Virus genome (UHGV): UHGV-0096816 | Source: a virus | Strand: one strand, 5' to 3' | Length of the DNA stretch: 18,606 bases | Part shown: positions 35-17,401 of the stretch, piece by piece | How positions within the stretch are numbered: the first letter of the stretch is position 1 | Layout of the letters: each line of letters opens with the position of its first letter | Notes under the pieces: model-generated | The model's input: only the letters and a program-made list of their open reading frames with translations | Told to the model about the DNA's origin: nothing | Databases searched by the model: none | Position numbers and translations under genes: made by a program

Positions 35-1582
35 ATGAGTGGGATAAAGATGAGATTTAAGGTGCTGCCTGCGGGAAGTATGTGCTCTGTTGAACAATCT
101 AACTGTGCCTATTTAATTACTGATAATTGGGATGACTGGTTTGAATTTTCTACAATGTATACATTGGTTTATATAGATTCAAATAAGGATAAGAATATTA
201 TTGGTTCTACTAAAATTGGCCAATTGAATATGGCGAAAGGTCAAAGTAGACCAAGTATCCCTGAAGCTTTCGAAAAACTAGATGAGAGTTTTTTCTCCGT
301 TGGTCAAGATGATAGTTTTTACGAAGTGTTGAATGAACTAGGAGAAGATATCCGAAATGAAATATTATCATCGCTTAATGATATTGCTCTGAGTGAAGAT
401 ATATATAATAAAGCAATAAATGAGAGGGTCACTAGCATATCTCTTCTGAGATCCGTCAGCCATACATCTATTAAGGGACAGTTTCGTCGACTTGCGAACG
501 GAGGTGCTCGACTTTCAAAATATTCATTTTCATATAACTCACCAGTGATGAAAGGCACTGACTCTGACCGTATTAAGTTAAGTTTTGAAGTGATACCAGA
601 GAGCAATCCCCCAACAAATATTCATGTGCTAATTGGTCGGAATGGTGTTGGGAAAACGCATTTAATGAATAATATGATTAGTTCATTAATTGACGAAAAT
701 ACAACGCCAACAAAAGTCGGTGAATTTTCATCTAAAGATCAACTAGCTGGTGAGCTTTTCTCTAACGTAGTATCAGTCACTTTTAGCGCTTTTGATGAAA
801 CAGAACCTTTATCAGAAAAAAAAGATAAATCTACAGGTATACAGTTTTCATATGTGGGACTAAAAAGAGTAAAAAAAGGTGATGAGAAAAGTCTCCCGCC
901 CAAAAGCCCTGTTATATTGAAAAATGAATTCGTGAAAAGTATGCTTTCTTGTAAGGCAGGAGGGAAAATTGAACGTTGGAAAAGGGCTGTGGATAAGCTG
1001 GAGTCAGATCCAGTATTTGCTGACATTAATGTAGCATCAATATTGAATAGACAAGATGAAGATGAGTTTAAAGATATTGCAGGAAGAGTATTCAAAAATT
1101 TAAGTTCCGGGCACAAAATTGTATTGCTAACTATCACTAGACTTGTCGAGACAATGGAAGAAAGAAGCTTGGTTTTTTTAGATGAACCAGAAGCTCATCT
1201 CCATCCACCATTATTATCAGCTTTTGTAAGGTCTCTTTCTGATTTATTAATTAATAGGAATGCAGTATCTATAATAGCTACCCACTCTCCTGTAGTTCTC
1301 CAGGAAGTTCCTCGAAGCTGTACGTGGAAGTTGTGGCGTAGTGGCTACTTGTCTAAAGTAGAAAGGCTAGAAACAGAATCTTTCGGTGAAAATGTGGGTA
1401 TACTAACGAGGGAGGTATTTGGATTGGAAAATACCGACTCTGGATTCCATAATCTTCTTGACGATGCTGTAAATAAATTCGAAGATTACGATTCAGCTGT
1501 GCAAAATTTCAATGGGCAACTTGGAATTGAAGCTAGAGGTATTTTGCGGGCTTTGTTTTTAATTAAGAGAAACCAATCATGA
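35..1582 (+). CDS. ABC-type (SMC/RecF-like) ATPase with N-terminal extension; candidate defence ATPase (PtuA-like partner of the downstream HNH nuclease)
   Basis: 515-aa ORF. Walker A GRNGVGKT at about residue 201, signature-like LSSGHK at about 357, Walker B/D-loop LVFLDEPEAHLHP at about 379, H-loop-like IATHSP at about 414. About 190 aa of unassigned sequence precede Walker A. Stop overlaps the next start (ATGA). AT-rich. An alternative start at ATG 50 (MRFKV) is possible. Confidence 0.6.
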   Translation: MSGIKMRFKVLPAGSMCSVEQSNCAYLITDNWDDWFEFSTMYTLVYIDSNKDKNIIGSTKIGQLNMAKGQSRPSIPEAFEKLDESFFSVGQDDSFYEVLNELGEDIRNEILSSLNDIALSEDIYNKAINERVTSISLLRSVSHTSIKGQFRRLANGGARLSKYSFSYNSPVMKGTDSDRIKLSFEVIPESNPPTNIHVLIGRNGVGKTHLMNNMISSLIDENTTPTKVGEFSSKDQLAGELFSNVVSVTFSAFDETEPLSEKKDKSTGIQFSYVGLKRVKKGDEKSLPPKSPVILKNEFVKSMLSCKAGGKIERWKRAVDKLESDPVFADINVASILNRQDEDEFKDIAGRVFKNLSSGHKIVLLTITRLVETMEERSLVFLDEPEAHLHPPLLSAFVRSLSDLLINRNAVSIIATHSPVVLQEVPRSCTWKLWRSGYLSKVERLETESFGENVGILTREVFGLENTDSGFHNLLDDAVNKFEDYDSAVQNFNGQLGIEARGILRALFLIKRNQS

Positions 1583-2418
1583 AAAAACTCTTAAAACCGA
1601 ATGATAGTGCGTTGGATGTATTTAATGCATGCATTGATCGAGTTCGCGATGAAGATTTAAAGAGGAGGCTTATAGCATGTTCTCAAGAAATAGAAGATTC
1701 CTCAATAGAATTTGATGCAAAAGTATCAATTGCACAATTACATACAATTTTGCCTAAAGACAATGTTGCCACTGTTGTTACAGTTGACGAAATGAAGGTT
1801 GTCTATACAAGCAGAATGGCTAAGAAATTAGCCCCAGGGCGTATCTATTATGACAAGTTAATGTCACTTCCAGATCATGGAAGATGCCCACTATGTTCTC
1901 AAAGAGTAGTATCGACATTAGATCATCACTTACCTAAAGCACATTTTCCATCATTGGCTGTATCGCCTTTTAATCTTATACCAGCCTGTCAGGATTGTAA
2001 TAAAACAAAGAGCGAAGATATCCCAATTTGCTCAGAAGAAGAAACTTTGCACCCATATTACGATGATGTAGAAGCATTTGTTTGGGTTAAGGCAAAAATA
2101 CGGGAATCTATTCCTGTAGCGATAGAGTTTTATGTAGAGCCACCTGAAGATTGCCCCCCACTTTTAGCTAAACGTATGAAGTATCACTTTAAGGCATTTA
2201 AGTTGTCTGCTCTTTATGCATCACATGCAGCTGAAGAACTAGCGAGCATTGAATATATCGCAAAGAGAATTTACGATGGGGGGGGGAGTATCGAGTTAAA
2301 AAAATACTTGACTGAAACCGCAGCTGGAAAAAAATCGGTAAGCTTAAATTCTTGGCAATCCGCACTCTATAGTTGTCTCTCGGAAAATAACTGGTTTTGT
2401 GAGGTTAGATTTAGATAG
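1579..2418 (+). CDS. HNH-family endonuclease (PtuB-like), translationally coupled to the upstream ATPase
   Basis: 279-aa ORF with an HNH-type motif: CPLC ... DHHLPKAHFP ... NLIPACQDCNKTK (C-x2-C, D-H, N, C-x2-C). 4-nt ATGA overlap with the upstream ATPase. Confidence 0.65.
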   Translation: MKKLLKPNDSALDVFNACIDRVRDEDLKRRLIACSQEIEDSSIEFDAKVSIAQLHTILPKDNVATVVTVDEMKVVYTSRMAKKLAPGRIYYDKLMSLPDHGRCPLCSQRVVSTLDHHLPKAHFPSLAVSPFNLIPACQDCNKTKSEDIPICSEEETLHPYYDDVEAFVWVKAKIRESIPVAIEFYVEPPEDCPPLLAKRMKYHFKAFKLSALYASHAAEELASIEYIAKRIYDGGGSIELKKYLTETAAGKKSVSLNSWQSALYSCLSENNWFCEVRFR

Positions 2419-2475: not shown

Positions 2476-2707
2476 TAGCTGTGACTGTGCCAAGTCAGTT
2501 TTTCGTTCACTGCGGACATTCAACCCATTTTGAAAGTCAATTTTGTGACGCTAACATTCCTAACAGTAGTCTTGCTGGCAATCTGATATAATCTGAGGTT
2601 TCGTTGGGATATATTTATTAAACACACTACGACTCACAGATTTCATCTATAGTCGGCATAATTAAAATAGCAATCTTAAAAAGTGCAGAAACAAGTCGCT
2701 TTTAACA

Positions 2708-3205
2708 TTAATGGTCAAGCCATAAATTATCTCTATTGAGTAGACTAATCTTTGTTGCATTTTTTGATGCTAGAGTTACACATTCTCCTTTATCAAACTC
2801 ATCCAAACTAACAAATACAAATTTCTTGCCATCTTTTTCTTTTGGAAATACCATGAAAATCACTTCGAACGTAAGTTCGCTATTTTTATTAATTAAAAAT
2901 TGCTTGAGTGCGCGATACTTACCTATTTCACACTCTGTGAGTGTAAAGGAGGTGCAGTTCTCTGTTGAATGATACTTTGCATCCAGAAGAATAAAGGTGT
3001 TACTATCAACTTTAATAATAAAATCGGGGCGTTTTCCCCCATATATTTTTAAACTTTTAGATAGGTCTGTTTTTCCTTGTTCGACATATACAAACTCCCA
3101 TTGGGAGTTTTCTAACCATTTAAGAGCATACTCTTCACCATCCTCGCCTGCGGATGTAGGACATTGTTTCCTTAGCTTTCTGCGAATTTCGTCTAAATGT
3201 GGCAT
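2708..3205 (-). CDS. hypothetical protein with PD-(D/E)xK-like nuclease motif
   Basis: 165-aa ORF. Motif arrangement E (GEEYA) ... RPDFII ... LLDAKY resembles the restriction-endonuclease-like fold signature. Upstream on the minus strand AAAGGGAATATAATTT precedes the ATG (RBS-like plus a TATAAT). AT-rich. Confidence 0.45.
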   Translation of the reverse strand: MPHLDEIRRKLRKQCPTSAGEDGEEYALKWLENSQWEFVYVEQGKTDLSKSLKIYGGKRPDFIIKVDSNTFILLDAKYHSTENCTSFTLTECEIGKYRALKQFLINKNSELTFEVIFMVFPKEKDGKKFVFVSLDEFDKGECVTLASKNATKISLLNRDNLWLDH

Positions 3206-3410
3206 AAATTATATTCCCTTTCATATGGTATATCATTATTATCGACATTATTTGATGATTCTTTAGCAAAATTTCAAAAGATTGGTCTAATATATATTCA
3301 GGCATTGCAGTTCACCATATTAGAAAACTCTGTTCCTGGCTCAAAGCGGACTGTTTGGTTCTTTTCCATAATGTTAAGAAAATCAAGATGGCGTTGAAAC
3401 GCTTAAATTT

Positions 3411-4538
3411 TTACAATGCTACTTTGCTCCAACCTTTCCCTCGGTCATCATGGTAACGATCGGTTTGCTGCTGGGTTTTATGGCCCAGTAACTTTCTGGT
3501 ATCAATCCCTTGTTCTTTGTAAAGACGCTCAGATAAAGATCTTTGTTCATGAAAAGTTGCTGGAGTTCCAGTACCCCAATCAATTTCTGCCAGATCACGT
3601 GCCTTGCTAAAGTTCATCGTTAGTGTATTAGCTTTTACCTGTGCGCCACGTTCAGCCTGTGATGTAGTACGGAAAAAATGCACTAAGTATGGGCTGACTG
3701 CGTAGTCACGGCAGCGAGCTACTACATCACGTAAACACCAGTTGATAGCATTCAAACGTAAAGAAAGAGGGATAGCGATTTTGCTCCCGGTCTTTTCCTG
3801 AATGACGTGAAGATGATCCTCCCAAATATCACTAAATTTCATTTTGGATATATCTCCTAAACGCTGCCCAGTGACCAAAGCTAGGAGCATGGCATTTCCC
3901 ATATAACGATGAGCGGCGTCTGCGATATCGAATATTTTTTTCCATTCTTCTAGGCTGAGGCGTTGACGGCTAATTTTCCTTCTGGGTTGCTTCGTTGCAA
4001 GAGCAGGGTTATACCCTGGTGGAACTTCGCCGTAATGCTGTGCTTCCTTAAACACATCGATCAATACAGACCTTACGACCTGGGCCATTCTAGGCTGTCC
4101 AGCAGAGATATACTCATCAAGTAATTGTGCTATATCTCTGACATCAACGGCTGATATCAACTTCAGTCCTGCTCGTTCCCTGAGCAAGGATACTGGTTTG
4201 GCTTTCTGTTTATAGGTGTTGAGCTTTATATCGCCACTTTTCAGTCTGTCTTCCTGGATTGCTTGATAGCGATCTAACCAGGTTGACGTTGTGATTGCTT
4301 TTCCTTTGCTGGTTGCGATCCTGTCACTGATAGCCAGAATCTGCCGGGTTCTTTGCTCAGCCAGGCGTGAATTTGCCTCAGTGGCAATAGCAATGGCTTC
4401 AGCTTCGTTTGTGCCTAAAGAATGAAACTTCCCGGTCACTGGATGTTTATATCGCCAATAGACTTTATTTACTTTTCTACTATAAAGCGGATACAAGTTC
4501 GGGACTGAAACATTATTTTTACGTGGTCTGGCTGCCAT
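3411..4538 (-). CDS. int: phage tyrosine integrase (lambda Int family)
   Basis: 375-aa ORF. N-terminus (PNLY..., TGK.. LG) and C-terminus LLGHKTQQQTDRYHDDRGKGWSKV parallel lambda Int (LLGHKSDTMASQYRDDRGREW), including the catalytic-Tyr region. 5' end overlaps the xis 3' end as in lambda. Confidence 0.9.
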   Translation of the reverse strand: MAARPRKNNVSVPNLYPLYSRKVNKVYWRYKHPVTGKFHSLGTNEAEAIAIATEANSRLAEQRTRQILAISDRIATSKGKAITTSTWLDRYQAIQEDRLKSGDIKLNTYKQKAKPVSLLRERAGLKLISAVDVRDIAQLLDEYISAGQPRMAQVVRSVLIDVFKEAQHYGEVPPGYNPALATKQPRRKISRQRLSLEEWKKIFDIADAAHRYMGNAMLLALVTGQRLGDISKMKFSDIWEDHLHVIQEKTGSKIAIPLSLRLNAINWCLRDVVARCRDYAVSPYLVHFFRTTSQAERGAQVKANTLTMNFSKARDLAEIDWGTGTPATFHEQRSLSERLYKEQGIDTRKLLGHKTQQQTDRYHDDRGKGWSKVAL

Positions 4539-6786: not shown

Positions 6787-6873
6787 CAAAACAGAGAAGA
6801 ACACCTGCGGTGGCAGCCGCCCGGATGGATTGGGTTATGAGCCCGTCGTCCGGTGATGCTCTTCTCTGTTTTG
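6787..6873 (-). ncRNA. structured leader element upstream of the early-left operon (long-range stem enclosing GC hairpins); function unknown
   Basis: caaaacagagaaga (6787-6800) is a perfect inverted repeat of tcttctctgttttg (6860-6873), with inner hairpins gcgg/ccgc and ccgga/tccgg. It lies 50-130 nt upstream of the RBS of the 120-aa gene on the minus-strand transcript. Confidence 0.35.
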
Positions 6874-7138
6874 TAAAAAGGACGGTACCAGCCGGAAGCA
6901 AGGGTACAAACTGGTACCGCCAGGACTACACACAGCATAAAGTTGTAGTGCCGGGTGCCTCCCGGTGCCTGGCGAAGGTTGCACACCAGGCGGGTGGGTA
7001 TCCACAGAAGGTCGACTGTCAGCCTCAACCTTAACCCGCGTGCGCTGAGCCGCATTCACCACAACGCTAAGGATTCTCTCTGGTTGAAAATACTTAGCTG
7101 TTATGTGCCTGCTTTTAGCCACATCAGGCGAGGTGGAC

Positions 7139-7190
7139 CTGGTTATTCCCCAACAACAAGGATTCGGTTAATCTGGTTATCCCCAACAAC
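7139..7190. repeat. two direct repeats CTGGTTAT(T)CCCCAACAAC with 34-bp periodicity, immediately upstream of the 144-aa plus-strand gene
   Basis: Repeat 1 at 7139-7157, repeat 2 at 7173-7190 (one T deleted). The second ends 15 nt before the ATG at 7206. Confidence 0.6.
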
Positions 7191-7205
7191 GCAAAAGGAA
7201 AAGAA

Positions 7206-7640
7206 ATGTCCGGTAATATCTATACGCTGTACAAATCCCACTGTGAAAATGTTGGAAAGTATCGGGGCATTGAAATCAGTGGGGTAGTGTCATCAGTCGA
7301 AATAAGCAAAGTTGAATCAAGGGCAACATTACTTACTCTTCTGGACCTTGTCTTACATGAGCACCGGAAGAAATTCGGCACTCCCTATAATCAGTTGAAT
7401 GGGAAAAAGGCTCTGGTTCACCTTATTCTGATGAAGCATCACTGGATGCCAAAACAGATTAATGAGATGAAATTTGATGAACTTCTTCTTTCAATTCAGG
7501 ATGAACTCACACTTGATAAAATAAGCGTAACCGCCCAGAAATTTTTAGATTATCGAGACTGGAGATCACAAATTCATCACTTTGATGATTTTGACGAAAA
7601 TGAATGGGATCCTAATTTGTCTGCACAATATCTAAAGTAA
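7206..7640 (+). CDS. hypothetical protein (144 aa), opposite-strand moron-like gene inside the early-left region
   Basis: ORF with AAAGGAAAAGAA RBS-like stretch before the ATG; opposite in orientation to the surrounding leftward operon; AT-rich. No recognisable motif. Confidence 0.5.
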   Translation: MSGNIYTLYKSHCENVGKYRGIEISGVVSSVEISKVESRATLLTLLDLVLHEHRKKFGTPYNQLNGKKALVHLILMKHHWMPKQINEMKFDELLLSIQDELTLDKISVTAQKFLDYRDWRSQIHHFDDFDENEWDPNLSAQYLK

Positions 7641-7818
7641 CATCCTGTGATAAAACCGTGATTTCCTGATCCAGTTTTTTTAAGGAGTCTATTGTTTCCT
7701 GTCGATAAGACAGCACTTCACGAAGCTGGTTTATAGCTGCCAGCTTCTTTGTCATCCACTCATAAATTTCCTCATCTGTGTAGCCAGGCGCGACGATTTT
7801 GGGTTCTGTTTTGTGCAT
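7612..7818 (-). CDS. hypothetical small protein (68 aa), first ORF downstream of the OL-like operators
   Basis: Strong RBS GAGGAGG 6 nt upstream of ATG (MHKTEPK...). Its 3' end overlaps the 3' end of the convergent 144-aa gene by 29 nt. Not Arg-rich, so not an obvious N analogue. Confidence 0.4.
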   Translation of the reverse strand: MHKTEPKIVAPGYTDEEIYEWMTKKLAAINQLREVLSYRQETIDSLKKLDQEITVLSQDVTLDIVQTN

Positions 7819-7876
7819 TTCACACCTCCTCAAGTTATCAGTTACTTGTTGATGGGGACCAGATTGTTAAAGAGCT

Positions 7877-9752: not shown

Positions 9753-10087
9753 ACAGTTTAACAACACACTACCGTCGCTCGCAACTGATTGCACTTCCTG
9801 TACCGGGTGGAAAAGCGAAGGTGGAGTATTGCTATGCAGTGAATGTACCAGGTGACAGGGAAATTGTAACCCACAGCTTTGCAGAGTGGGCTGTGGGTGA
9901 TTTCAACAGGCAAAAGGAGACAGTCCTTTGCGACAAGTTAACCGCTGGTTCAAAGATCACTACGGAGTGCCCGTCAGAGTCATTCATTGGGAACCGGAAA
10001 CACAACGGGTTATCTACCTCCGCGAAGGCTATGAGCATGAGTGCTTCAGCCCGCTCGAACAGTTTCGTCGTAAATTCAGGGAAATAG
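9749..10087 (+). CDS. hypothetical protein (112 aa)
   Basis: ATGA start/stop overlap with the upstream gene suggests translational coupling. A competing ORF in another frame (9586..9855) makes this uncertain. Confidence 0.4.
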
Positions 10088-12182: not shown

Positions 12183-12505
12183 CGACGTTAACTCAATGCC
12201 AGCAGCAGGTGCTGGATATGCTGATTTCTTACCAGAAAGAGCGTGGCTTTCCGCCAACCAATCAGGAGGTGGCAACCATGCTGGGATACCGTTCAGTGAA
12301 TGCAGCGGTAGAGCATCTTCGTGCACTGGAGAAAAAAGGCGTCATCACGATAAAGCGTGGCGTGGCCCGGGGGATAACGCTTCATACCGCGGTGAAGGAC
12401 GACGACAGCGAGGCGGTCGGGATTATCCGCGCACTGCTTGCCGGTGAGGAAAACGCCAGGCTGCGTGCAGCCCACTGGTTACATGAGAGGGGCCTGAAAG
12501 TATGA
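12179..12505 (+). CDS. LexA N-terminal-domain-like DNA-binding protein (no peptidase domain)
   Basis: LTQCQQQVLDMLISYQKERGFPPTNQEVATMLGYRSVNAAVEHLRALEKKGVITIKRGVARGITL aligns closely, by recall, with the E. coli LexA N-terminus ([65 protein letters not shown]). Confidence 0.7.
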   Translation: MTTLTQCQQQVLDMLISYQKERGFPPTNQEVATMLGYRSVNAAVEHLRALEKKGVITIKRGVARGITLHTAVKDDDSEAVGIIRALLAGEENARLRAAHWLHERGLKV

Positions 12506-12891
12506 AGCTGATCCTGCCTTTCCCGCCCAGCGTGAACACGTACTGGCGACACCCCAACAAAGGGGCGTTTGCTGGTAAGAGCCTGATAAGCGCGGCGGGG
12601 CGAAAATTCCAGAGCGCGGCGTGTGCAGCAATAGTTGAGCAGTTACGTCGTCTGCCGAAACCAACGTCGGCACCTGCTTCAGTGGAGATCGTGTTGTTTC
12701 CTCCGGATAAGCGGATCCGCGATCTGGACAACTATAACAAGGCGCTGTTTGACGCCCTGACCCACGCGGGTGTGTGGGAAGACGACAGACAGGTGAAAAG
12801 AATGCTGGTGGAGTGGGGACCGGTTATCCCGAAAGGGAAGGTCGAGATCACTATCAGTAAGTATGAGAAACCGGCGGGTGCAGCCGCCTGA
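12502..12891 (+). CDS. rusA: RusA-family Holliday junction resolvase
   Basis: N-terminal LPFPPSVNTYWRH and catalytic-region RDLDNYNKALFDALT motifs match RusA; 129 aa. Confidence 0.8.
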   Translation: MKLILPFPPSVNTYWRHPNKGAFAGKSLISAAGRKFQSAACAAIVEQLRRLPKPTSAPASVEIVLFPPDKRIRDLDNYNKALFDALTHAGVWEDDRQVKRMLVEWGPVIPKGKVEITISKYEKPAGAAA

Positions 12892-14735: not shown

Positions 14736-15122
14736 ATGCGTAATATACAGATGATCCTTGAACGTTGGGGGGCATGGGCAGCGAGTGATAGCTCAGGAGT
14801 TGACTATTCGTCTATAGCTGCTGGGTTTAAGGGGCTTCTTCCATATACCAGAAAGACACGTCTAGCTTGTTCAGATAGTGATGCATTAATTATTGAAGGT
14901 AGCCTTGCTCTTCTTAAGAAGAGAAAACCGTACGAACATTCTTTGATTGTGGCTCATTACCTGTATGGCATCTCGAAAAGAAAGATCGCAAAGGCACGTA
15001 ATAAAGACGAAAAATTGATACGTATCGAGATACAGGTTGCTGAAGGTTTTATCGATGGCTGCCTAAGTATGCTGGATGTGAAACTTGAAATGGATGACTA
15101 CTCTGAGTCTCCTGTAGCATGA
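14736..15122 (+). CDS. late-gene antiterminator Q (phage-82/QuuD-like family)
   Basis: MRNIQMILERWGAWAA ... SSIAAGFKGLLP resembles the N-terminus of enterobacterial Q antiterminators as recalled. GGAGAAAG RBS; located upstream of the lysis genes. Confidence 0.65.
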   Translation: MRNIQMILERWGAWAASDSSGVDYSSIAAGFKGLLPYTRKTRLACSDSDALIIEGSLALLKKRKPYEHSLIVAHYLYGISKRKIAKARNKDEKLIRIEIQVAEGFIDGCLSMLDVKLEMDDYSESPVA

Positions 15123-15733
15123 AATAATGAAACGACCATATGTCTTACATAATATGGTTGATTTGTAGCTGGATGCAATGTTGTACTCATGAATCGCAAG
15201 GGATTATCCTCGTCGGTTGTAATTTTTGCATCAGCTACTTCCTGCTGAAGATGCTTTCGCCAGTCATCAAGTCTCTCGCCAGATTTCTTAATTTTACAGT
15301 AAATGATAATGCCACCATGGTTGTCACGCGCAGTGCCAGTGCCATATCGCTCGTTGAGCTGGTTCCATCCACCTAAGATGTACGCAGGACCTTTCCATAA
15401 TTTAGCTTCGCCAATCCATGCAAATCGGCCGAGCTGATGTTTAACTAATATATCTATATGCCCTCCATGCTGAGTGTCATGTTCAGCGTCATAATTACGG
15501 CCTTTCAAAAAAGCAATAATAACTGATGTGAGCTCATCTTCACCCCACTGCTGTGTTTGATACATATGTTTTTGGGTTTCCAAAACATACATCGCGTCAT
15601 CAAGGTCAACGTAAAGTTGCTTCACGAAATCGTCGTGACTTGCTGCAAATTTTCGCTTAAGAAAACCAGACAATTCAGGGTCAAATTGACTTAAGGTGTC
15701 TAATTGGGCAAGGTTGAAATTACATTCACTCAT
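15098..15733 (-). CDS. cassette gene 3: hypothetical protein with PD-(D/E)xK-like nuclease motif (candidate effector)
   Basis: Segment GEDELTSVIIAF ... GGHIDILVKHQLGRFAWIGEAKLWKG gives an E ... D ... ExK spacing typical of PD-(D/E)xK nucleases. Its 3' end overlaps the Q 3' end convergently by 25 nt. Confidence 0.55.
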   Translation of the reverse strand: MSECNFNLAQLDTLSQFDPELSGFLKRKFAASHDDFVKQLYVDLDDAMYVLETQKHMYQTQQWGEDELTSVIIAFLKGRNYDAEHDTQHGGHIDILVKHQLGRFAWIGEAKLWKGPAYILGGWNQLNERYGTGTARDNHGGIIIYCKIKKSGERLDDWRKHLQQEVADAKITTDEDNPLRFMSTTLHPATNQPYYVRHMVVSLFHATGDSE

Positions 15734-16148
15734 GTAATTCCTCCAAAGCCTCAGTAGGAGTGAAGTATGGGAACAAATAATGATTATAATTATCGACTAA
15801 TTGACCACTGTAAGGATGATAAAACTTACCTGTATGAAGCGCATGAGACACGTCATCATCATCGACGGGAATAGGATCACTATCGTCAGACTCGATATAC
15901 TGGAAATGCATATCTAGCAAGTGCATTCTGTTGCTCGAAAGATAGTCAGTTACTTTGATCAGTAAAACTTTGGCATCGTTATTTTGCACATCAAGCTTAG
16001 TACCATTAACCAAACTTACATATGTTATGTGTTTCAGTGACTTAGCTTCTTTGCTGGTTAAAAAATCAACCACAACACGACATAAATCTCCAACCGGCCC
16101 ATGTAGGTCGTGGTTGATTTTCGAGTATATGTCGTGTTTAGTTAACAT
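15726..16148 (-). CDS. cassette gene 2: hypothetical small acidic protein (about 140 aa)
   Basis: ATG preceded by AAGAG RBS; acidic stretch ESDDSDPIPVDDDD; overlaps gene 3 start by 8 nt. Confidence 0.5.
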   Translation of the reverse strand: MLTKHDIYSKINHDLHGPVGDLCRVVVDFLTSKEAKSLKHITYVSLVNGTKLDVQNNDAKVLLIKVTDYLSSNRMHLLDMHFQYIESDDSDPIPVDDDDVSHALHTGKFYHPYSGQLVDNYNHYLFPYFTPTEALEELHE

Positions 16149-16158
16149 AATCAACTCT

Positions 16159-17256
16159 TTATGCAGCCTCGTCAGTGGCTCGCTTTCTCTGTATGCTTGA
16201 TAGTGACTCTAACATCTTGTTGATTACAAACAAAATATGCTCAATTGAGGAGCAACGATCTATGATTGCATCATAAAGGTGACTGTTCGGTTTATCAATC
16301 ATAGCCCGTTTACCTGGCAGTATTAATTCTACAGGGAAAACTTGAGAAGCTGAATCAGTCAGATCCCAAATTTTACCGAGTTTGTATTTCGTTAGTATGG
16401 GACTTGCCTCTTCGCCCCCATGATGGTAGCTGTCTGAGCGCAAGCAGCTTTCACCCGGACGGAGTTTTAATGAGCTGGTGTTTCCATCTGATGTAAGAAA
16501 TGACATCTGCGAGATTCTACCATCTGTTTGCTCGTACATTTCTTGTACTAATCCAAAGAGGTCAATGGGCGCAGGTAAAGTCAAACCAGTAGTAGTTCTA
16601 ATAAACTGATCAAGCAAAAATTGCTGTCGTTCCGACTCTGAACGAGGCATCACAGATAAATCAACAGTGAGCGCAAGTAAATGCAACTCGGGTAGAATCA
16701 TTATTGTATTAAAGCACTGTGTAACTTCACGTGTTTTACATTTGATTTCACCACCATTGGAGCGAAGAGCTAGCCCAGCATCGCTTAAATGGGTCGCGTC
16801 GAGTTCAATAGTTTCTGTGTAGTATGCTTTCGACGTAAGAATCGTTGTTTCTAAAGAAACTTTGTTTACGACAGAAAATGTAGTTTCTAAAAAATGAAGA
16901 TCTGTATCAGCTGCAAGCAACACATCTTTAGGCAAAGGATATGGATAGCTTTCGCAAAAAACGGATTCGTCTCTTTCTAGGGCATTTATATTCTCCCGTA
17001 GAGTTTGCACTTCTTCCGGTTCTAACTTATACAGCTTAACTAAACGGGTCCCACTCAATAGTAAATTTTGCCATACTTCACCTATATGAGTACTTACAGC
17101 TTCCTGATCTACATCTTCTGTTGCTTGGAGCCTCGCGATAAATGGGTCAAGGCCAACTGATGTGACACCAAGTGGTTCCCCCACAATTTTTTTTGTGAGC
17201 TTCCATCCAACACGTTCGGTGATATCTCTTAAAAGGTTGATCGTTTGCTCATTCAT
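16159..17256 (-). CDS. cassette gene 1: hypothetical protein (about 365 aa), candidate sensor or scaffold component
   Basis: Start set at ATG (MNEQTINLL...); the ORF track extends to a TTG at 17298. No recognisable catalytic motif. AT-rich. Stop is 10 nt from the start of the next gene. Confidence 0.55.
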   Translation of the reverse strand: MNEQTINLLRDITERVGWKLTKKIVGEPLGVTSVGLDPFIARLQATEDVDQEAVSTHIGEVWQNLLLSGTRLVKLYKLEPEEVQTLRENINALERDESVFCESYPYPLPKDVLLAADTDLHFLETTFSVVNKVSLETTILTSKAYYTETIELDATHLSDAGLALRSNGGEIKCKTREVTQCFNTIMILPELHLLALTVDLSVMPRSESERQQFLLDQFIRTTTGLTLPAPIDLFGLVQEMYEQTDGRISQMSFLTSDGNTSSLKLRPGESCLRSDSYHHGGEEASPILTKYKLGKIWDLTDSASQVFPVELILPGKRAMIDKPNSHLYDAIIDRCSSIEHILFVINKMLESLSSIQRKRATDEAA

Positions 17257-17401
17257 AAGAAACCCTTTTTTGTATTTTTTTGTACTTTTTGAAGGCAATT
17301 TAGATAGTCCTTAACATACTAAATTAACGAACATATTTCATTAGCACGGTCCGCAAAAAGTGATGTATCGTGTTAAGAGTGGTTACTTCGCCACACAACT
17401 T

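Follow-up and report, generated by a model that had tools for sequence, protein, structure and literature searches.

A 165-residue PD-(D/E)xK protein carried as prophage cargo: predicted nuclease fold, conserved flanks and a possible role in phage exclusion

The virus genome UHGV-0096816, represented here by a stretch of 18,606 nucleotides (nt; referred to as the window), carries on its minus strand, at positions 2708–3205, an open reading frame (ORF) for a stand-alone protein of 165 residues, which is deposited as WP_001120279.1 under the RefSeq name 'hypothetical protein' and belongs to PHROG 28481. By fold and motif, this small nuclease is a member of the PD-(D/E)xK superfamily and lies outside both the curated families and the defence systems modelled in PADLOC in 2023, and a fold and a probable activity are assigned here to PHROG 28481 and WP_001120279.1. 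The gene appears to travel as an autonomous cargo ('moron') cassette of approximately 0.8 kilobases (kb) with its own promoter region, and the genomic company kept by its family strongly suggests defence. We give an even chance to the reading that the lysogen expresses the protein as a nuclease for exclusion or defence, encoded by one gene and independent of the Septu-type system beside it. The unusual points are the small size of the protein, its Hjc-like core, and the cassette-like mobility of the gene with conserved flanks.

Predicted fold, catalytic residues and family

The structure of the small nuclease was modelled with AlphaFold2 from an alignment of 29 sequences, with a mean predicted local distance difference test (pLDDT) of 87.2 and a predicted template-modelling score (pTM) of 0.81. 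Briefly, a first helix (residues 16–32) carrying E24 is followed by a strand (residues 37–40), an insert of lower confidence (residues 41–60) that ends in a conserved GGKRPD motif, two strands (residues 62–67 and 70–79) carrying D61 and D75-x-K77, a further strand (residues 86–90), a second helix (residues 91–107) carrying E93 and Y97, a last core strand (residues 112–121), and a β-rich extension (residues 128–165). This α-β-β-β-α-β core is the canonical layout of the superfamily, and its catalytic residues occupy the expected places, with E24 on helix 1, D61 at the start of β2, and D75-x-K77 in β3. Foldseek matched the model to Hje (E = 9e-5), to the nuclease-bearing chain of XauSPARDA (E = 6e-4), and to HincII, and the best named matches in a fold search of a viral set were proteins annotated as Hjc or RecU. 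Because the canonical core of the model and the Foldseek matches agree, the PD-(D/E)xK fold is confirmed at the level of the predicted structure, with the same catalytic residues that an initial annotation of the window had pointed out. The model suggests a catalytically competent minimal endonuclease with an Hjc/YraN-like core, a short basic N-terminal helix, and a C-terminal β-rich extension, which would cleave phosphodiester bonds in a metal-dependent manner.

The initial annotation had described a 165-residue AT-rich ORF, convergent with an ATPase–HNH operon and with an E…PD…DxK spacing in its translation, and each of these points is borne out. The guanine-plus-cytosine (GC) content of the ORF is 34.9%, versus 45.3% for the window; the ATPase and HNH genes (35–1582 and 1579–2418) lie on the plus strand; and the translation contains GEEYA (residues 23–27), RPDFII (residues 59–64), and LLDAKY (residues 73–78). 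On the minus strand, the codon of E24, the predicted metal-ligand or catalytic glutamate, occupies 3134–3136, those of P60-D61, the 'PD' of the motif, 3023–3028, and those of D75-A76-K77, the '(D/E)xK', 2975–2983. The ORF listing and translation give an ATG start, which is supported by the retention of the N-terminus in all homologues and is also preceded by an AAGGGA site. On the upstream side of the ORF lies only the stop codon of a lambda-type integrase gene (3411–4538, minus strand).

In the alignment of 29 homologues, E24, P60, D61, D75, K77, H79, E93, and Y97 are invariant, and among 63 homologues (21–73% identity) E24, D61, and K77 remain invariant while D75, E93, K58, R59, P60, G20, and G23 are conserved in at least 90%. 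In comparisons of the coding DNA, third codon positions are 63–76% identical, versus 76–86% for the whole coding sequence; the coding-sequence columns alone were used, as free end gaps raised the values of the pairwise identity table even where far flanks are unrelated. The conservation of the motif in the family, as judged from these alignments, is not chance.

The nearest structural relatives, Hjc and Hje (PDB 2wcw, 1ob8, 1gef, and 1hh1), share with the small nuclease the minimal single-domain size class and the order of the catalytic residues, i.e., the Hjc pattern of a glutamate on helix 1, an aspartate at the start of β2, and (D/E)xK in β3. However, identity to them is only 12–14%, there is no match to the Pfam Hjc model, and the small nuclease has an extra 20-residue insert between β1 and β2 with the conserved GGKRPD motif and adds the C-terminal β extension and the N-terminal helix. 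Furthermore, Hjc and Hje are archaeal, whereas the small nuclease is bacterial, is carried on mobile-element cargo, and has a near-neutral isoelectric point (pI); the likeness obtained is one of fold only. Nor is the protein a sequence-level member of RecU, YraN/UPF0102, or the homing endonuclease I-Ssp6803I (PDB 1y1o, 3fov, and 2ost): the small-nuclease family is rare and mobile, in contrast to the chromosomal YraN gene with its wide conservation, and no intron, intein, or fixed homing site is present here. The sole sequence similarities, to McrC, the FokI cleavage domain, RmuC, NERD, VRR-NUC, and HSDR_N, fall at the PD…D-A-K-Y core and lie, for McrC and the other restriction-type domains alike, below curated thresholds; in contrast to enzymes of the McrBC or FokI type, the small nuclease has neither a McrB-like GTPase partner nor a DNA-recognition domain.

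Database membership is correspondingly sparse. PHROG 28481, annotated as 'unknown function', is the sole family match and is matched end to end (E = 2e-117). No Pfam model reached threshold (best, RmuC, 13.9 bits versus a cut-off of 26; three restriction-fold families, RmuC, McrBC, and the FokI cleavage domain, are among the sub-threshold matches), no NCBIfam model did so (HYExAFE, 14.6 versus 60), and the gathering thresholds of the curated families RmuC, McrBC, FokI_cleav_dom, HYExAFE, Hjc, NERD, and UPF0102 were not reached. A sequence search of the PDB gave nothing significant for the protein or its profile, the best nuclease match of the profile (second overall) being the McrC catalytic motif (6ut5_G, E = 0.068). 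WP_001120279.1 is not mentioned in the literature searched; one UniRef entry, for a Rahnella member, is automatically named 'PD-(D/E)XK endonuclease-like domain-containing protein', and the other names are 'hypothetical' or 'uncharacterized'.

A word-indexed search of 5.8 billion proteins returned 33 clusters (40–99% identical) from Escherichia, Citrobacter, Rahnella, Rouxiella, Serratia, Idiomarina, Pseudoalteromonas, and metagenomes, and a full hidden Markov model (HMM) search of 1.84 billion representatives returned 215 matches at E ≤ 1e-3 and 85 at E ≤ 1e-10. The HMM-matched relatives are nearly all single-domain proteins of 150–210 residues, with no recognisable second or partner domain in the longer ones (P0034, P0038, P0045, P0152, P0165, and P0170), and remote members graze NERD, VRR-NUC, and HSDR_N, which are all PD-(D/E)xK families. 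The family is rare, gammaproteobacterial, and without a name.

Conserved flanks and recurrent genomic sites

The DNA flanking the gene was compared among enterobacterial members whose proteins are 65–79% identical and whose surroundings are unrelated. An upstream non-coding region of approximately 147 nt (3206–3352, minus strand) is kept in 8–9 otherwise unrelated loci, with 67% mean column identity over the last 128 nt in nine loci and an abrupt drop near −150, and a downstream non-coding region of approximately 170 nt (2535–2707, minus strand) retains 61% mean column identity in seven unrelated loci and includes a conserved block with the consensus TTAGCAAGACTGCnGCTATGAATGTC. Because non-coding DNA is conserved on both sides across otherwise unrelated loci, cassette-like movement of the gene is indicated. 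The upstream region contains the Shine–Dalgarno-like AAGGGA (3215–3220, minus strand), 9 nt before the ATG and kept as AAAAAGGAA in homologous cassettes, and a −10-like GATAAT (3238–3243, minus strand), a putative promoter element 32 nt upstream of the ATG that appears as the motif ATGCCGATAAT in relatives. A TTTAAA(G) block stands 17–18 nt upstream of GATAAT in the conserved flank; in the window this −35 is weak (GCTAAA versus the consensus TTTAAA), and promoter function is for that reason put forward as a prediction, with transcription predicted to begin near 3231.

The two signals that had been proposed just upstream of the gene in the initial annotation fared differently. The purine-rich ribosome-binding site stands, at 3220–3215, whereas the TATAAT (3213–3208) proposed as a promoter does not: it is downstream of the ribosome-binding site and precedes the ATG at 3205, a position that rules it out as the −10 element of an mRNA bearing that site, and the equivalent positions in related cassettes are not TATAAT, so it is a chance match. 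A LexA box was also considered in the upstream block, and CTG-N10-CAG was found intact, by eye in the alignments, only in one locus (L012).

Approximately 19 independent genomic contexts of the family were collected, and neighbours within 5 kb were compared all-against-all in 13 of them. The gene recurs at integrase-proximal ends of prophages, in the gpA–gpQ defence hotspot of P2, and in defence islands. In a P2-like genome (L030), a homologue with 62% identity follows AbiV, a HEPN protein, between gpA and the gpQ–gpP genes, an interval known as a defence hotspot of P2-like phages (bioRxiv 10.1101/2021.01.21.427644). In two P2/186-like prophages (L006 and L031), the gene comes directly after CII, CI, an ORF, and Int, and in a Rahnella P2-like prophage (L007) it lies between gpV and gpS. 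The latter prophage holds beside it a 329-residue gene (6844–7833, plus strand), found in no other locus and with no Pfam match at threshold (weak DUF3226, E = 0.0016). In a Mu-like prophage (L026), the order is Int, a 917-residue SMC/AAA_21-type ATPase (RefSeq 'TrlF family'), the gene, the Pin invertase, and tail fibres, an arrangement that is also present in IMG/VR contigs and in 13 complete Escherichia coli genomes. Two further loci (L009 and L013) are prophage ends abutting a tRNA-derived attachment (att) fragment.

Other members reside in islands. An Acinetobacter mobilisable island (L005, the same as L054) carries a type III Mod–Res pair, a 203-residue protein, the gene, AAA_13, and mob genes; another locus (L019) carries AIPR, a type III Mod–Res pair, and a NucS_C-like protein, followed by the gene and RadC; and an Idiomarina island (L016) carries SIR2, a resolvase, and the HEPN protein ApeA before the gene and AbiTii after it. 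Integrases, HipBA, BrxR, and JetD accompany the gene in L022, a 613-residue reverse transcriptase stands immediately upstream of it in L045/46, AAA_21 and RloB lie downstream in L056, and DUF3800 lies downstream in L011 and L025. In L053, an 821-residue DUF4238 protein is encoded nearby, and a DUF4238 domain gave resistance to T7 in the study of the P2 hotspot (bioRxiv 10.1101/2021.01.21.427644). On a metagenomic contig (L010, 1–120), approximately 15 tandem AATGAGC heptamers abut the upstream edge of the cassette.

No partner gene is common to the 13 loci compared, in agreement with the earlier suggestion of an independent single gene. The only recurring neighbours are umuDC (L004, L009, and L013) and type III Mod–Res (L005 and L019). 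A neighbour of 203–205 residues in L005, L013, and L016 was considered as a common partner and rejected, the proteins not being homologous at E ≤ 1e-5. A PADLOC scan of 137 neighbour proteins was swamped by redundant methyltransferase models and gave no usable count. The umuD–umuC genes lie within approximately 2 kb of the small nuclease at 10075–11732 in L004, 9523–11162 in L009, and 9679–11369 in L013, and also adjoin the Septu pair closest to that of the window (L036, 8508–10197). In L005 (1475–7264) and L019 (1458–8531), the most divergent branches (42–44% identity), the gene follows a complete type III Mod–Res pair in the same orientation, with one or two uncharacterised genes in between; because the two restriction–modification pairs are only 25–33% identical, the arrangement may have arisen twice.

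The exact 165-residue protein is recorded on 211 contigs, and, of 5426 complete E. coli genomes, 16 have a member of the family. A search of 50,697 deposited phage genome records found none, so the gene is not a core phage replication gene; the seven IMG/VR contigs that carry a member are all prophage-like.

Such mobility could also be that of a selfish or addictive element, either a toxin with an RNA or tiny-peptide antitoxin in the flanks or a free-standing homing endonuclease. Non-coding flanks of approximately 150 and 170 nt travel with the gene, its distribution is sporadic, it is inserted between conserved phage genes in L007 and L030, and the disruptions by insertion sequence IS1 described below could reflect a cost to the host. 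However, the 3′ flank yielded no conserved RNA structure (three pairs at −0.55 kcal/mol by RNAalifold) and no conserved small ORF (stops in all frames and no common frame), Rfam and tRNA scans of the window found nothing, and the 13 loci share no neighbouring ORF that could serve as antitoxin, although an unstructured antitoxin RNA may be present in the flanks. Terminal direct or inverted repeats were likewise sought at the cassette ends, where the TAGCAA blocks score within the distribution of shuffled controls, and the insertion site differs in every lineage, the opposite of the same site in related genomes that homing would leave. We consider a selfish element quite improbable.

Defence, repair or restriction

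The reading of the small nuclease as a single-gene defence nuclease draws on the company of defence and prophage genes, the varied cargo of the slot between icd and intE in which the gene lies in the window, the conserved promoter region of its own, and the invariant catalytic residues. Furthermore, uncharacterised PD-(D/E)xK proteins are the commonest class, and PD-(D/E)XK the commonest domain, among predicted and newly validated defence genes of E. coli (DefensePredictor, PMC13092281), so the small nuclease is the kind of thing to be expected there. If this reading is right, Shedu SduA and the PD-(D/E)XK systems of DefensePredictor would work alike, as one-gene nucleases in islands and hotspots; however, the small nuclease matches no Shedu model of PADLOC, is much smaller at 165 residues, and has no accessory domain.

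The protein would be produced by the lysogen as an active, metal-dependent nuclease whose targets are incoming phage DNA and other foreign DNA, cut by virtue of a feature absent from the host chromosome. Because the nuclease is tolerated without a methyltransferase or antitoxin, its substrate would have to be something that the host chromosome normally lacks. One candidate feature is branched replication or recombination intermediates, by analogy with the fold of Hjc, Hje, and RecU, and another is modified bases, as the weak likeness to the McrC motif and the example of McrA, carried by e14, would suggest; the fold would point first to branched DNA. The fuller picture, in which a one-gene, 165-residue, Hjc-like immune nuclease spreads between prophage hotspots as a 0.8-kb promoter-bearing cassette, cuts a structural feature or base modification of phage DNA without sensor or partner, and is controlled in its expression by its flanks, is held only tentatively and is on balance doubtful. 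A defence role, if true, would place the protein among the smallest self-sufficient anti-phage nucleases, built on the core of a junction resolvase and not of a classical restriction type, and would raise the question of how a 165-residue enzyme without a sensor domain tells phage from host DNA. The gene would also illustrate clearly how a defence-type gene can pass between unrelated prophage hotspots (e14, P2, and Mu-like) as a cassette of less than 1 kb that brings its regulatory DNA along.

Several observations weigh against defence. The defence role, like the nuclease activity and the substrate, is inferred. No defence model of PADLOC matches the small nuclease (0 families at E ≤ 0.1 in PADLOC-DB 2.0.0, a library dating from 2023, Shedu models included), and neither its sequence nor its accession was found in the part of the DefensePredictor supplementary files that was available. 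The closest folds are recombination enzymes and not restriction enzymes, no sensor or reader domain is recognisable in the 165 residues, and the pI is near neutral, at 6.3. Four loci (L004, L010, L012, and L055) have no recognisable defence gene, and genes of DNA-damage tolerance (umuDC, DinI, a YedK-like SRAP protein, and RadC) recur near the small nuclease. Moreover, among three complete E. coli genomes with the allele of the window, only that of 23CRST035 has the gene intact: in EC06, IS1A lies inside the ORF (L040, 1779–2476), and in X14-3 (L002, 9487–10317) only the final 39 codons remain beside a deletion, bounded by IS1, that has also taken the rest of the prophage. A second IS1 splits ptuA as well in X14-3.

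These IS1 insertions may mean that the gene is costly, or may simply follow from the preference of IS1 for AT-rich DNA. Pseudogenisation in most relatives, which the initial annotation had named as a finding that would speak against its proposal, was not encountered: IS1-hit copies were seen, yet there is no general pseudogenisation, and of 13 variant copies the two inspected are both annotated as intact 165-residue genes.

The recombination enzymes among the closest folds lead to the main non-defence rival, in which the protein is a structure-specific recombination or repair nuclease (an Hjc/RecU-like resolvase) carried as accessory DNA-damage-tolerance cargo and not as an immune gene. Hjc/Hje and RecU match the structure best, umuDC is found within approximately 2 kb in three independent loci, and DinI, SRAP, or RadC is encoded near the small nuclease in several. 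On the other hand, the prophage in the window already encodes RusA (12502–12891, plus strand; 95% identical to RefSeq RusA), so the phage does not need the small nuclease as a junction resolvase, and the gene sits in cargo slots and not in replication or recombination modules. The absence of the family from the deposited phage genome records and the bona fide defence genes in most of its contexts argue in the same direction. The umuDC neighbourhood may be generic cargo of prophage ends or a real association with DNA-damage tolerance; because the closest Septu pair (L036) has umuDC beside it too, the neighbourhood looks like the former. Overall, a repair function is judged unlikely.

By contrast, a modification-dependent (type IV-like) or solitary restriction endonuclease would be a special case of the defence reading. 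In most loci no cognate methyltransferase adjoins the gene, which is tolerated nonetheless, and the only near-significant matches are to the PD…DAKY motif of McrC/McrBC (Pfam McrBC, E = 0.064; PDB 6ut5_G, E = 0.068) and to the FokI cleavage domain. Prophages of the e14 type carry the modification-dependent HNH enzyme McrA. However, the McrC/McrBC and FokI matches all lie below threshold, and a Pfam scan found no SRA, EVE/YTH, or winged-helix reader, for which 165 residues, the last of them (128–165) forming the β extension, leave little room. Modification-dependent or solitary restriction is rated improbable. A type II restriction–modification system is not indicated, there being no methyltransferase among the common neighbours; restriction–modification genes are adjacent in two lineages only (L005/L054 and L019), both with complete type III Mod–Res pairs.

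The prophage cargo slot and the neighbouring Septu-type pair

The window represents one half, that nearest the integrase, of an e14-like lambdoid prophage whose insertion site in E. coli is icd. In the E. coli strains 23CRST035 and EC06, the same 4.6 kb follow icd directly and are 99.7–99.9% identical. The genes follow in the order PtuA-like ATPase, HNH protein, small nuclease, intE (the integrase gene at 3411–4538), and xisE, and the first 3.4 kb have a GC content of 34–39%, versus 44–57% for the rest of the prophage. Other strains hold quite different cargo between icd and intE, namely, a 1040-residue and a 156-residue hypothetical protein (L033), three hypothetical proteins with insertion sequences (L034), or DarT, an HD protein, and a macro-domain protein (L035), and the interval is therefore a variable cargo slot, or hotspot. 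In K-12, the e14 slot carries ymfD, ymfE, and lit. The cargo of the e14 slot (Lit and YmfD/E) and that of the P2 hotspot (old and tin) occupy the same genomic positions as the small nuclease and its homologue, but the proteins are unrelated to it, and the likeness is one of location and presumed role only.

The ATPase–HNH pair beside the small nuclease is a Septu-type PtuA/PtuB system. The PtuA-like AAA_21 ATPase (35–1582, plus strand) matches the PADLOC models PDC-M01A (E = 2.9e-210) and PtuA1 (E = 5e-195), and the PtuB-like HNH protein (1579–2418, plus strand), whose gene overlaps that of the ATPase by 4 nt, matches PDC-M01B (E = 1.7e-106). The initial annotation had offered, as an alternative to an independent gene, that the small nuclease is a third component of this system, and adjacency and a common low GC content, both in the window and in the two to three genomes of E. 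coli and Shigella that hold the same cargo, are consistent with it. Nevertheless, the gene is convergent with the pair and is preceded by a conserved promoter region of its own, the PADLOC models for the pair (PDC-M01A/B and PtuA1) describe a system of two genes, and co-occurrence failed in both directions. By tblastn across all loci, only the window and its E. coli/Shigella copies (L001–L003) combine PtuA, PtuB, and the small nuclease, and none of the approximately 19 outside loci has PtuA or PtuB. Conversely, the three closest PtuA–PtuB pairs (PtuA 90%, 88%, and 79% identical), which lie at a prophage end by umuDC, on a phage-like contig by hok, and after a Providencia prophage integrase, are without the small nuclease, and no member of its family was found in the closest PtuAB loci (L036–L039). 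In the same database, at least 7884 PtuA relatives (E ≤ 1e-30) compare with 33 clusters of the small-nuclease family, the ATPase family being more than 200 times larger. Linkage to Septu is ruled out by this forward and reverse co-occurrence, and we regard a third-component role as extremely improbable. A search for PtuA in viral contigs found nothing. In Shigella flexneri SFBU0723 (L003, 8919–9626), the PtuB match covers 236 of 279 residues, which suggests a truncated HNH gene, and the small nuclease is intact and 100% identical.

A second AT-rich block (39–42% GC) is present elsewhere in the window, at 15098–17298 on the minus strand. It holds three hypothetical genes, of 211, 142, and approximately 366–379 residues, on the opposite strand, with no significant match in a PDB sequence search, and it sits between the Q antiterminator and the holin, an interval that is the classical moron site of lambdoid phages.

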